Counted from the first letter of the stretch, positions 1-6,588 are shown. The stretch is 6,588 nt of DNA from a virus (IMGVR_UViG_3300045988_079189:1-6588), one strand, 5' to 3'. Notes: generated from the letters alone by a model not told the origin. Numbers and translations: made by a program.

Positions 1-55
1 CCAGCGCAATCTTTTAAGGAAAAGTTGAATGTCTTCATAACGCGGATAAGATAAA
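1..55. repeat. Terminal redundancy of the contig. Bases 1-55 are identical to 6534-6588, so the molecule is a 6533-nt circle opened inside the rep gene.
   Basis: Base-by-base comparison: ccagcgcaatcttttaaggaaaagttgaatgtcttcataacgcggataagataaa occurs at both window ends. The minus-strand rep frame runs through the junction without a stop. Confidence 0.95.
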
Positions 56-414
56 GCACCGAACAGATGAGCTTTCTCCAATGCCTGAGGTATCTCATCA
101 TGGTCGGACGTACAATAATTTTCTAATAATTCACCAGTATTGTAATCATATATTTCATAGAAGGAAAAGTTCCGTGTCTGTTTAGCAAGACGGAACACAG
201 CGCGCGGGATAAAAGAATTAGCAAATGTAAGGGTAACAAAATACACCTTAGCAGAAGTAAGACCCTCTAATGTACACTGCTCAGAATAACGGGAAGCCTT
301 AATAGTAGCACATGCAGAACAATGGCCACAAGGGACAACCAACGGCTCCTTAGTAAATGGATTTATTATCCGTTTAGGCCGAAGGCAATATACAAAGGGG
401 GTCTCCTTACTCAT
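1..414 (-). CDS. VP4: Replication initiation protein VP4 (HUH rolling-circle endonuclease), N-terminal 138 codons. It continues across the circular junction into 6533->5298.
   Basis: My translation from the ATG at 414-412 reads MSKETPFVYCLRPKRIINPFTKEPLVVPCGHCSACATIKASRYSEQCTLEGLTSAKVYFVTLTFANSF...YEDIQLFLKRLRW. It is open to base 1. Joined length is 414+1236 = 1650 nt, which is in frame with ORF 5298..6542 (track start MRWR is really ...KRLRWR...). It contains the Cys-rich CGHCxxC segment and the RCR motif-1-like FVTLTF typical of microvirus VP4/gpA. Confidence 0.85.
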   Translation of the reverse strand, partial: MSKETPFVYCLRPKRIINPFTKEPLVVPCGHCSACATIKASRYSEQCTLEGLTSAKVYFVTLTFANSFIPRAVFRLAKQTRNFSFYEIYDYNTGELLENYCTSDHDEIPQALEKAHLFGALSYPRYEDIQLFLKRLRW

Positions 415-3502: not shown

Positions 3503-5305
3503 TTAATAAGGTAATCCATTCAAGTCCAGAGGACGAACCGCGCGACAAGTAATCATACAAGAGCCTAACAACGGGTCAGTATCCGGAGTATCATCAGCCT
3601 TAACGGCAAACAATGTATCAACACAATGAGGGTCAACCTTGAAAAATCCTGCCTTAATAGAATTGGATTCCACATTAGGATTGTCAGGAAAATCAACAGA
3701 GTTGGCAGCTAACGCAGCCTTGTCGTCGAAAGGGAGACACCAGTACTGAAGAGAGCGAGAAAAAGCACCGACAGAGCGGTCATAATCAGTTTTGAACGGG
3801 AAATACCTAGGAGCATAACCTAGATAAGTATCACCCTTCAAGTTTGAGAATGATGACTTCAAAGGATTCATAAGATAGCCTAAAGGAACCTGCTCCATAC
3901 CAACTTGGTCAAATTCAGGAATAGGATAAGACGTAGCATCAGTCAACAAACACTCAGGATTAACACCAGAAGTAATGTAATCAAGCATAGGCAAGGCATG
4001 GAACACACACATAACAATACCGTATTCACCATTAGCATCTACTCTAATAGTACCACGGGCAGACATAGAACCTTTACCTCCAAGAGTAGCAGCATTATCA
4101 TCGATTAGATTCGTATTGGTAACCTCATTAATATCCAACGAAGTATCAATACCGCCAAGATAACGTACCATACCGGAAAGTTCTTTTGGAACGCGAGTGC
4201 CAAAGTGCGCTTGAATCTGAGAGGGGTAATCTTCCTCAGTGCACAGTGAGATTTCTTTCCATTTTTGAGAAGCTTCCGCACGACGAAGAGACAAGATATC
4301 AAGGGTAAATGAATCTATACCTGAAACAGCCAATCCAGTTTTATACAATGCAAAATTATCAGAAGCATCAGCCAATATTCCCTGTTTTGAAGATTCGTTA
4401 AAAAACTTAGCAGCACCATCAAGACTGAACTGAGGATTAGTCTCATTCTTAAATGACATAGGTTTACCATCCGATACAATAGAAGGAGAACCACTAATAG
4501 AAACAAGAGACGCTTCTCCATACTGAGCCTGCGGAATAACACCATGAAACATATCCTTTTGATAATTGGCATACCGCATGTCAAGGAAGTTAAAAGAGTC
4601 AGTAAATCCAGGCCAAGTCAAGTCGAGTTGTAAATCATTATTACCCATAATGTAATCCAGATTAAATGTAGAAGGATTAACACGTTCCCATTGGGTGAAT
4701 CGGCCAGAATCAGCATAGATCTTCTGATAACAGAGAAGGGGAGAAACATCAAATGCAAAGTTAATCAACAATGGGGCAGACCTCCAGGTCTTACCGGGAC
4801 CTCCGGCAGCAGCTGAGATATAATTGTAAAACGCATTACCATATCCGAGATACTCCAATAAGATACAAGTATTCCACGCACGAGAACGGCCAAATGTATC
4901 CACGGAATCACCTAATTCTTCAATATAAATTGCCAACTGCTCAGCAGTAACATAAGGAAGTTCACCAGTAAGAATAACATTTTCCTGCAATGTAGGGCCT
5001 GAAGCATGCTGAACATTGGAATTCATCTGCGTCAATGCGGTATAATATTTATTCCAAAGTACACGCAAAGGAACGAAGTAAAAATCATAGTAACCTTTCA
5101 TACGCGCAAACGCAGAAGTGTTAAGAGGTTGGGTACGGATAAATTGAGCCAAATCAATTTCAAATGAATCCGAAGGAATCATACGACGATGCCAGATAGG
5201 ATAATACATACCTACCTTGGCAGAAAAGTTAAATTTACGCGACAAGTCAAAACCGGAACGAGACGGGTTATTCTTAACCGTCGCCAAAGACATAATATTA
5301 GCCAT
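3503..5305 (-). CDS. VP1: Major capsid protein VP1 (phage F-protein family).
   Basis: The 600-aa ORF starts with MANIMSLATVKNNPSRSGFDLSRKFNFSAKVGMYYPIWHRRMIPSDSFEIDL, followed by RTQPLNTSAFARMKGYYDFYFVPLRVLWN. These are hallmark blocks of Microviridae major capsid proteins. The ATG (5305-5303) overlaps the rep 3' end by 8 nt. Confidence 0.93.
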   Translation of the reverse strand: MANIMSLATVKNNPSRSGFDLSRKFNFSAKVGMYYPIWHRRMIPSDSFEIDLAQFIRTQPLNTSAFARMKGYYDFYFVPLRVLWNKYYTALTQMNSNVQHASGPTLQENVILTGELPYVTAEQLAIYIEELGDSVDTFGRSRAWNTCILLEYLGYGNAFYNYISAAAGGPGKTWRSAPLLINFAFDVSPLLCYQKIYADSGRFTQWERVNPSTFNLDYIMGNNDLQLDLTWPGFTDSFNFLDMRYANYQKDMFHGVIPQAQYGEASLVSISGSPSIVSDGKPMSFKNETNPQFSLDGAAKFFNESSKQGILADASDNFALYKTGLAVSGIDSFTLDILSLRRAEASQKWKEISLCTEEDYPSQIQAHFGTRVPKELSGMVRYLGGIDTSLDINEVTNTNLIDDNAATLGGKGSMSARGTIRVDANGEYGIVMCVFHALPMLDYITSGVNPECLLTDATSYPIPEFDQVGMEQVPLGYLMNPLKSSFSNLKGDTYLGYAPRYFPFKTDYDRSVGAFSRSLQYWCLPFDDKAALAANSVDFPDNPNVESNSIKAGFFKVDPHCVDTLFAVKADDTPDTDPLLGSCMITCRAVRPLDLNGLPY

Positions 5306-6588
5306 CTTCAGAAAATATTAGTTTATCATTAATACGTTTATTTTTTGAACGAACAAGAGAAACACGAGTGATGTGACGATAAAATCGCCTATAATACTCA
5401 GTTTTTAAAAAATCATTTTCAAAATCAGCATCAGTATTGTTATAAAAAAAGTCCAAATCTTCAGGAGCTGAAAAGTCACTTTCAAAATAAAGCTGCTGAG
5501 ACTCAATCCAATCACGAAGGTGAACATAATCAACCCAGGACCAAAACTGGACAACTCTGTTATAAAAAGTAGACAAGTTAACGCCAAGAATACGAGCATT
5601 AGAGCAAAACCTTTTCGAAATAGACAACATACGATAAAGCCTAAGAACATAGCGATAATACATCTCATCGTTGGAAAAATCAAATGATTTAGGAAAATCC
5701 TTAGCATTAACAGCATAAGTAGACAAGAAAGATAGATAGTTTCTCTGAAATGGAGAATATCCAGTCTTTCCAAGGTACACACAATCAATAACATCCTCAA
5801 CAACAGATTTAGATAAATCCATCATATTAAGGTCGTTACCATACATAGAATCAGACGTTAACACGTCATAGAGTCTCGGGACTTGAGGGAAAAAGTAGAT
5901 AACTGGTATACAGAGGGAAAAATCCCTTTTGTTAGAGACAGGGTTAAACCCAAGACATTTTGGGTATAAGTAATTGACAATTGAAAAGGGTGTAGGTCTT
6001 TCTCGAGATTTAGTATCACCGATTCTGACATAACTAACAAGTTCTCTAGGGTCTCGTAACAAAGCTTGTTTAAGGTCGGGGATAAAATATCGGCGGCCGA
6101 GGAATCGGCTGTGTCGGGACTTGAGGGAAAAAGTAGATAACTGGTATACAGAGGGAAGAGACATAGGGCTAGTAATGTATCCCGCAACATACTGAGAGCA
6201 GTCACTGGCTCCGACTGATTCACAATCGACACGACCGAATTTCCAAGCTTCACGGACAGCGAATTCGAAATATGAAAGCCGATGACCGGATGTGACTGGA
6301 GGGTCTTTTCTAAGTGGCCAAGTCCACTGAGGGTAATCTCCAAGGGTATGTCCGGAGTATGGCTCAAATTCTTCACTATCGACGAAAAATAAGAAATGGT
6401 AATGAATTCTGTAGGTTTCGGGTCCGTATTCAGGAGCACAGAAAAATCTAAGCTTCGAGGCTGAAATACAATCTGACGCTTTGATTTCTTCTTCCTTTTC
6501 AGGAATTTTCCCAGCTTTGAGATTTGACAAGCGCCAGCGCAATCTTTTAAGGAAAAGTTGAATGTCTTCATAACGCGGATAAGATAAA
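5298..6588 (-). CDS. VP4: Replication initiation protein VP4, residues ~121-549 as seen in this window. The true N-terminus is at 414->1 across the circular junction.
   Basis: It contains the HUH motif RIHYHFLFF (codons at 6384-6404) and the catalytic-tyrosine motif SQYVAGYI (6174-6191), followed by FSLKSRHSRFLGRRYF. This matches the microvirus VP4/phiX174 gpA-type RCR initiator. The track start at 6542 is an internal TTG (Leu). The frame stays open to 6588 and continues into 1-414. No Walker-type NTPase motif is visible. Confidence 0.9.
   Translation of the reverse strand, partial: LSYPRYEDIQLFLKRLRWRLSNLKAGKIPEKEEEIKASDCISASKLRFFCAPEYGPETYRIHYHFLFFVDSEEFEPYSGHTLGDYPQWTWPLRKDPPVTSGHRLSYFEFAVREAWKFGRVDCESVGASDCSQYVAGYITSPMSLPSVYQLSTFSLKSRHSRFLGRRYFIPDLKQALLRDPRELVSYVRIGDTKSRERPTPFSIVNYLYPKCLGFNPVSNKRDFSLCIPVIYFFPQVPRLYDVLTSDSMYGNDLNMMDLSKSVVEDVIDCVYLGKTGYSPFQRNYLSFLSTYAVNAKDFPKSFDFSNDEMYYRYVLRLYRMLSISKRFCSNARILGVNLSTFYNRVVQFWSWVDYVHLRDWIESQQLYFESDFSAPEDLDFFYNNTDADFENDFLKTEYYRRFYRHITRVSLVRSKNKRINDKLIFSEDG
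5876..5919. repeat. Copy 1 of an exact 44-nt direct repeat inside rep.
   Basis: tcgggacttgagggaaaaagtagataactggtatacagagggaa is identical to 6114-6157, and the flanks are unrelated. Rep reads it here as SLCIPVIYFFPQVPR. It contains two gagggaa sub-repeats (5885-5891, 5913-5919) flanking a GTATAC palindrome. Confidence 0.95.
6114..6157. repeat. Copy 2 of the exact 44-nt direct repeat inside rep.
   Basis: Identical to 5876-5919 with a 238-nt offset, which is not a multiple of 3. Rep reads it here as PSVYQLSTFSLKSR, about 17 nt downstream of the catalytic Tyr motif codons. Confidence 0.95.
6534..6588. repeat. Second copy of the 55-nt terminal redundancy (identical to 1-55).
   Basis: Exact identity to 1-55. 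A 55-nt overlap is what a de Bruijn assembler with k=55 would leave on a circular contig (inference). Confidence 0.95.

Follow-up and report, generated by a model that had tools for sequence, protein, structure and literature searches.

Two exact copies of a 44-nt sequence, directly repeated within rep of a gut microvirus, differ in origin. As read from alignments with related genomes, the upstream copy (6114-6157) is the native source and the downstream copy (5876-5919) is a derived insertion private to the genome analysed here (IMGVR_UViG_3300045988_079189:1-6588, a stretch of 6,588 nt hereafter referred to as the window). The account that we favour, with modest confidence, is that the downstream copy arose in vivo as a one-off templated insertion of essentially zero age, either by a double template switch or during the repair of a break. 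The repeat is thus an ordinary mutational event or an artefact, and the 44-mer is best read as a sequence without function of its own.

Bases 1-55 of the window are identical to bases 6534-6588, and this 55-nt terminal redundancy closes the contig into a circle of 6533 nt, a microvirus genome. ORF calling placed every long ORF of the circle on the minus strand. The circle encodes a 600-aa major capsid protein (a Phage_F domain was found in the identical gene of L011, a contig of the same strain), a 349-aa protein, a 166-aa protein and the replication protein Rep. Rep is encoded by one minus-strand ORF of 549 aa, which runs through window positions 414..1 and then 6533..5298, so that the gene crosses the contig junction. 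The N-terminal part, with its ATG at 414, occupies positions 1..414, and the C-terminal part (429 codons plus the stop) occupies 5298..6588. Since the contig ends split rep, linear ORF lists give fragments of the gene only. Rep matched the Pfam family PF23343 (REP_ORF2-G2P, E=2e-10), and microviruses from animal guts in GenBank encode homologues that are ~30% identical to it and bear the annotation replication initiator or VP4. At the DNA level, no near relative emerged when the whole genome was compared with GenBank phages by megablast. The YVAGY motif, which contains the catalytic Tyr (Y253/Y257), is invariant in the Rep alignments.

The preliminary description of this DNA had reported the exact 44-nt repeat at 5876-5919 and 6114-6157, with an offset of 238 nt and both copies inside rep, and a repeat finder confirmed it, returning a 47-nt direct repeat with one mismatch (5873-5919/6111-6157). 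There are zero differences between the two 44-nt copies, the sequences that flank and separate them are unrelated, and about 1e-18 exact repeat pairs of this length would be expected in a genome of such size and composition. The circular ORF also bore out the claim that Rep reads the copies in two different frames: at codon offset 1 the upstream copy is translated as LPSVYQLSTFSLKSRH, whereas at codon offset 2 the downstream copy gives FSLCIPVIYFFPQVPR. The native 44-mer (6114..6157, minus strand) encodes Rep residues ~264-279 (LPSVYQLSTFSLKSR) and stands at the homologous place in all the relatives. Its peptide starts 8 residues past the YVAGY motif, which fits the earlier placement of this copy just after the catalytic Tyr. 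The second 44-mer (5876..5919, minus strand) is read by Rep as (F)SLCIPVIYFFPQVP(R) and falls on a 33-column gap in the relatives. All three reading frames of the 44-mer are open. The heptamer TTCCCTC occurs four times in the genome, twice per copy with the two units 28 nt apart.

In order to establish which copy is ancestral, Rep was compared with its homologues. A protein search retrieved close homologues in two clusters, at 92% and 86% identity, along with some 50 others that are more distant. Two protein alignments were built, A1 with 11 sequences and A2 with 50 sequences (49 homologues plus the window Rep). In both close clusters Rep has 538 aa, versus 549 aa in the window. The difference is an 11-residue insertion unique to the window Rep, with no residues at that place in any homologue of A1 or A2. 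The extra block lies at the downstream copy and can be written as CIPVIYFFPQV plus a Tyr-to-Cys change (or an equivalent). Those cluster members, 88-98% identical, that keep the segment read RDFSLY(K/R)LYD.

The DNA of relatives was obtained from ENA, Logan, JGI and IMG/VR (L001-L010, L015 and L016; 85-97% identity in rep). The second copy of the 44-mer was absent, and the native site present, in 12 of these 12 contigs. The DNA alignment with nine relatives showed the 33-column gap in each of them at the position of the downstream copy, and L016 also encodes a Rep of 538 aa. The target in L001-L010 and L015 consists of GGGATTT(T/A)TC, seven nucleotides and (A/C)(A/G)ACTCTATGA; the relatives' sequence is GGGATTTTTC followed by GCTATAC, or a variant of it differing by one or two bases, and then A(A/G)ACTCTATGA. 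At the native site, the 44-mer is 44/44 identical in L006 and 42/44 identical in L001 and L004, and it is far more diverged in L002 and L005. L006, the closest relative (97.2% identity in rep), carries the ancestral GGGATTTTTCGCTATACAGACTC at the target together with the full 44/44 match at the native site. Since it has both, the direction of copying and the ancestral state are fixed, including that of the one mismatch of the 47-nt repeat. This mismatch is an ancestral G, part of the Arg AGA codon of those relatives that read ...SLYRLYD. The block that is not ancestral spans 5877-5916 (40 nt) and stands where the ancestral sequence has the 7 nt GCTATAC. On balance +33 nt were gained, equivalent to 11 codons, and the Rep frame is kept. 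All 40 inserted bases (44/44 when the microhomologies are included) are identical to rep nt 791-834, located 238 nt upstream. No match to the left-junction pattern was found among IMG/VR and JGI metagenome contigs, and the analysis yielded no second, independent contig with either novel junction. Neither the full Rep nor either of its two contig-end pieces had an exact match on record.

A separate observation concerns the peptides encoded at the two sites. In a distant Rep clade (P0018-P0053 of A2, at the columns of window residues 338-362) the place that corresponds to the insertion target reads (P/S)SSVYQLL, resembling the peptide PSVYQLS of the native copy in the window. There is also a likeness in frame between SL-YRL, at the ancestral target, and SLPSVYQL, at the native site. 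These resemblances may be a coincidence or an old internal similarity.

The junctions were read directly from the alignments. At the left junction (5917..5919, minus strand) there is a microhomology of three bases, TTC, where the target reads GATTTTTC|GCTATAC and the template reads TCTCTTC|CCTCTG. Comparison of the target (...ATTTTTC) with the template (...TCTCTTC) extends the shared TTC to four of five bases with one mismatch. At the right junction (5873..5876, minus strand) the microhomology is a single A, extendable to A.AC with one mismatch (ACAC in the source, AGAC in the target), the template being ...CCCG|ACAC and the target ...TATAC|AGAC. A likeness to the start of the template (TTC.CT....ATAC) is also seen in the ancestral target. 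Two simpler routes, tandem duplication and slippage, were considered and rejected: 40 nt were copied rather than the 238-nt interval, and the flanks between the copies are unrelated. As in templated insertions, the inserted bases match a nearby sequence, microhomology is present at both junctions and the copy is derived and single. Insertions of the MMBIR type are short, are copied from a nearby template and have short, often imperfect, microhomology (PMC8421209).

A path that would produce this arrangement can be outlined. In the course of replication or repair, a 3' end that had reached ...GGGATTTTTC would leave its template and re-anneal 238 nt upstream at ...TCTCTTC through the 3-nt (imperfectly 5-nt) microhomology. 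Forty nucleotides would then be copied from the upstream site (CCTCTGTATACC...CAAGTCCCG), after which the strand would rejoin the original template 7 nt beyond the point of departure, using the 1-nt (imperfectly 4-nt) microhomology at AGAC. The outcome would be a gain of 33 nt that leaves both Rep and an overlapping ORF in the +1 frame in frame, with Rep acquiring CIPVIYFFPQVP and losing a conserved Tyr. A double switch on microhomologies of just 3 nt and 1 nt would be a rare event, and this counts against the explanation. What the window preserves is the scar; from it we infer, as the best reading, both the template-switch mechanism and an origin in vivo rather than in the library.

One important question is how the site looks in other assemblies of the same virus. 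Six contigs were 100% identical to the window and represent the same strain: L011, L012, L013, L014, L017 and L019, over 6492, 6315, 3704, 3044, 1942 and 1490 nt, respectively. The strain was recovered with zero differences in at least four ENA, JGI or Logan assemblies (ERZ27262210, ERR589565/ERZ914818, JGI 3300029231 and ERZ19634217), which are either re-assemblies of related samples or the mark of an unusually clonal and widespread gut microvirus. None of the six same-strain contigs contains the second copy of the 44-mer. L011 starts exactly at AGACTC, the right junction, and ends at GGGATTTTT, one base short of the left junction, where 30 nt of foreign sequence follow. L012 ends at GGGATTTTTCGCTAT, having retained the ancestral allele for six bases (CGCTAT), and is followed by 12 nt of foreign sequence. 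Two further contigs of the strain, L017 and L019, likewise stop in this region of rep (nt 870 and 893 of the gene). The segments L011 1-13 and 6480-6522 and L012 6300-6332 correspond to window positions 5876/5919, and their tails differ (GGTATTTTATTTCTAATGATCATAAAGAGG and TTTTTTTGCAGC). No match to the foreign tails of L011 and L012 was found in the window, the fetched loci, IMG/VR or GTDB genomes.

It is unlikely that these contig ends match the boundaries of the insertion by chance. They suggest branching or conflicting reads at the site, which co-existing alleles would explain, as would chimeric reads; a mixture of alleles, physical DNA ends and chimeric reads may each be the cause of the breakpoints. 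Given that the ancestral allele exists on an identical background, the insertion is either extremely recent, as a variant within the population, or not biological. If it is biological, the event is younger than any substitution in 6.3 kb, because the two copies are identical and L012 has the ancestral CGCTAT on a 100%-identical background. The 44-nt identity in two frames would thus reflect recency and not selection. The preliminary description had argued that two frames cannot maintain such identity under protein-level selection, and that either a nucleotide-level element or a very recent duplication or gene conversion must follow; its logic holds and the recent duplication stands, whereas the nucleotide-level element does not.

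The same assemblies bear on an explanation that we consider possible although not probable, namely that the second copy is a chimeric library molecule, produced by template switching in vitro and maybe propagated as PCR duplicates, or a path chosen by the assembler, the true site being GCTATAC. The insert is unique among all the relatives and databases searched, and L011 and L012, identical elsewhere and without it, break precisely at its two boundaries and continue into different tails. An artefact would also fit the ancestral CGCTAT of L012, the ends of L017 and L019 in the same part of rep, and the disruption by the insert of a confidently modelled helix and a near-invariant Tyr. However, target and source share 3-5 nt, and a de Bruijn graph needs real reads that carry the junctions in order to join them. 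The 55-nt terminal overlap suggests that the assembly used k=55, which exceeds the 40-nt block; if so, single k-mers would span both junctions. An artefact would further need two precise switches 7 nt apart that keep the frame and introduce no stop; by our estimate, an unselected artefact would keep the frame and leave the third frame open with a chance of about 0.17. Ordinary PCR chimeras, moreover, require longer homology. The early suggestion of an assembly artefact or chimera was strengthened by the same-strain assemblies that break at the junctions without the insert.

The coincidence of contig ends raises another explanation, which we regard as improbable: the site GGGATTTTTC/GCTATAC/AGACTC would be a breakage hotspot, exposed to a Rep nick, a host nuclease or a defence system, and the copied 44-mer would count among several error-prone repair scars present side by side in the population. 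It is equally improbable, in our judgement, that such a hotspot is the rolling-circle nick site of the lineage or a host nuclease target and that the site is hypervariable in a clonal population. Three otherwise identical assemblies do part ways inside a zone of 6 nt at the left junction, L011 has its beginning precisely at the right junction, and a 7-nt deletion combined with a templated insertion is a typical scar of break repair (PMC8421209). Third-position variability in rep is also lowest just upstream of the site (3/30 at rep nt 901-990), but this is better explained by the overlapping ORF described below. Against a hotspot, the foreign tails match nothing in the genome, the relatives, IMG/VR or GTDB and may be chimeric contig ends; the relatives assemble straight across the ancestral site, which varies synonymously among them; and no nucleotide motif is common with distant rep genes beyond coding conservation. 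Neither a CRISPR spacer nor a prophage copy matching the ancestral site turned up in a search of 185,579 genomes.

Conservation of the native 44-mer at the nucleotide level was measured across seven distinct genomes and ranked within rep. It falls at the 20th percentile when all positions are considered and at the 37th percentile for third codon positions, and synonymous variability peaks locally there, with 13-14 of every 30 third positions variable, versus 3-8 around it. Both TTCCCTC units are mutated in L002 and L005, those of L002 reading TACCCTC and TCTCCCTT. The four matches to the heptamer exceed the 0.81 expected, but just two of them are independent. Folding of 5840-6200 as single-stranded DNA was unremarkable (z=-2.06), with no dominant hairpin, and Rfam returned no hit anywhere in the window. 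When distant rep genes were compared for a shared origin-like nucleotide motif, the only common stretches were those explained by conserved amino-acid motifs.

These results bear on the claim that the 44-mer is a cis element recognised by Rep. As a functional element (an origin, or iterons bound by Rep) with two working copies, it would give rise to subgenomic circles or a short Rep, a reading to which we attach very little credence. In its favour, the 44-mer comes just after the motif of the catalytic Tyr and includes TTCCCTC twice, and the phiX174 origin sits inside gene A (PMC3606162). Yet the native copy is conserved below the gene average, both its heptamers carry mutations in L002 and L005, a second copy is lacking in every relative, and there is no notable single-strand structure. 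A second origin 238 nt away, within an essential cis-acting gene, would also be expected to destroy the genome in each round of replication. A rolling-circle origin or Rep recognition element was consequently rejected, the conservation of the native copy not going beyond what coding requires, and so were iterons, since there are two independent units, not conserved in relatives and with a count not significantly above chance. The comparison with related rep genes that had been proposed as a check for conservation of either copy or of the 7-mer units found the downstream copy absent and the 7-mers not conserved, and the Rep-recognised element put forward initially did not survive it.

The +1 frame of rep contains a candidate overlapping ORF (5858..6571 on the minus strand, continuing across the circular junction to ~101-122), with 258 aa when counted from an ATG at circular position 101. 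No stop interrupts this frame over 254 codons (rep nt 293-1054) in any close relative, or over 265 codons in the window, an openness that is uncommon among synonymous-codon shuffles (P=0.003-0.005). Three distant relatives, with about 30% Rep identity, have 205, 237 and 209 stop-free codons at the equivalent place (P=0.011, <0.001 and 0.013, respectively). Across seven genomes, 68% of the third positions of rep are variable ahead of the +1 ORF, 33% within it and 47% beyond it. Synonymous variability is strongly suppressed at window positions ~5880-6498 (rep nt ~450-1035), with 3-10 variable positions per 30 versus 14-28 elsewhere, and it recovers close to where the +1 ORF stops; within the suppressed zone, the native 44-mer forms a local peak of variability. 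Taken together, these data suggest an unannotated overlapping gene inside rep, absent from the annotations of the GenBank records examined. Both copies of the 44-mer lie within this ORF, so two frames are probably used at each copy. The insertion falls 6 codons before the stop of the ORF and adds 11 residues to its product.

Elsewhere in the circle, nested inverted repeats were observed at 906-1146, a region with no long ORF and with local G+C up to 0.49. Their arms are 989-1019/1022-1052 (31 nt, 84%), 930-960/1088-1118 and 906-933/1119-1146. This arrangement suggests that a long imperfect hairpin of about 240 nt may form in the single-stranded genome; Rfam gave no hit for the region.

The consequences of the insertion for Rep were evaluated on structural models. 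In the AlphaFold model of an ancestral-type Rep (P0060, mean pLDDT 80), the insertion site lies in a helix spanning residues 340-352 with a pLDDT of ~89. The residue displaced by the insert, Tyr346, is at least 90% conserved among the 49 homologues. The insert brings two prolines into Rep, and in the model of the window Rep the pLDDT of region 334-354 is below 50 (32-47). With the helix split, the conserved Tyr346 replaced, two prolines introduced and the predicted confidence reduced, it is doubtful on the basis of these models that the window Rep is fully functional. The insertion is probably deleterious, mildly to strongly.

If the insertion is real, a 44-nt direct repeat with 194 nt between its copies would be expected to be prone, in a replicon of single-stranded DNA, to copy-to-copy deletion by RecA-independent slippage. 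The resulting loss of 238 nt truncates Rep after residue 278, and for this reason the allele is expected to be transient. The truncated product had been calculated beforehand as a 283-aa protein, and our computation gave the same length, ending in ...FSLKSRDSMTC. This arithmetic stands, but the idea of a conserved mechanism for producing a short Rep or defective genomes does not, because the window genome is the only one with two copies. The junction of the 238-nt deletion was not seen in any of the fetched contigs.

If the insertion is real, the window offers a clear natural instance of templated insertion through microhomology, at zero age, in a phage with single-stranded DNA. It would show a way for initiator genes to gain segments in frame, and it would leave the genome with an unstable 44-nt direct repeat expected to shed 238-nt deletions. 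If it is an artefact, a catalogue genome carries a false 11-codon insertion in rep, which serves as a warning. In neither case is a new replication element revealed. Two by-products are of more use: the evidence pointing to a conserved overlapping ORF inside rep, and the assembly breakpoints that oddly coincide at the site.

Among known systems, the closest likeness is to MMBIR/FoSTeS insertions, with which the window rep shares a 40-nt block taken from a nearby template in direct orientation, tiny microhomologies that can be extended imperfectly, a 7-nt deletion at the target and a switch back to the first template. The MMBIR signature was described in eukaryotic chromosomes (PMC8421209), whereas the replicon studied here is a 6.5-kb phage of single-stranded DNA in which the event is known from its scar, and the template lies 238 nt away rather than at the ~100 bp or less of the cited yeast events (PMC8421209). 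The presence of short repeated units (TTCCCTC, two per copy) near an initiator gene recalls the iterons of plasmids and rolling-circle replicons, but the units in the window number just two independent ones, are located in coding sequence and are not conserved in relatives. A diversity-generating retroelement, which likewise has a template and a variable copy, one of them in a coding region, was rejected, given that no ORF for a reverse transcriptase exists on the 6533-nt circle and the copies are identical; unlike a true pair, they have no adenine-specific differences and are read in different frames. In phiX174, the origin of replication lies inside the initiator gene A, which is overlapped by A*, B and K (PMC3606162). 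The 44-mer differs from that origin in that it has no origin-like conservation and its second copy is not a family feature. In another respect the likeness to phiX174 is closer: as with gene B inside gene A (PMC3606162), the large rep of the window appears to hold a conserved ORF in the +1 frame.
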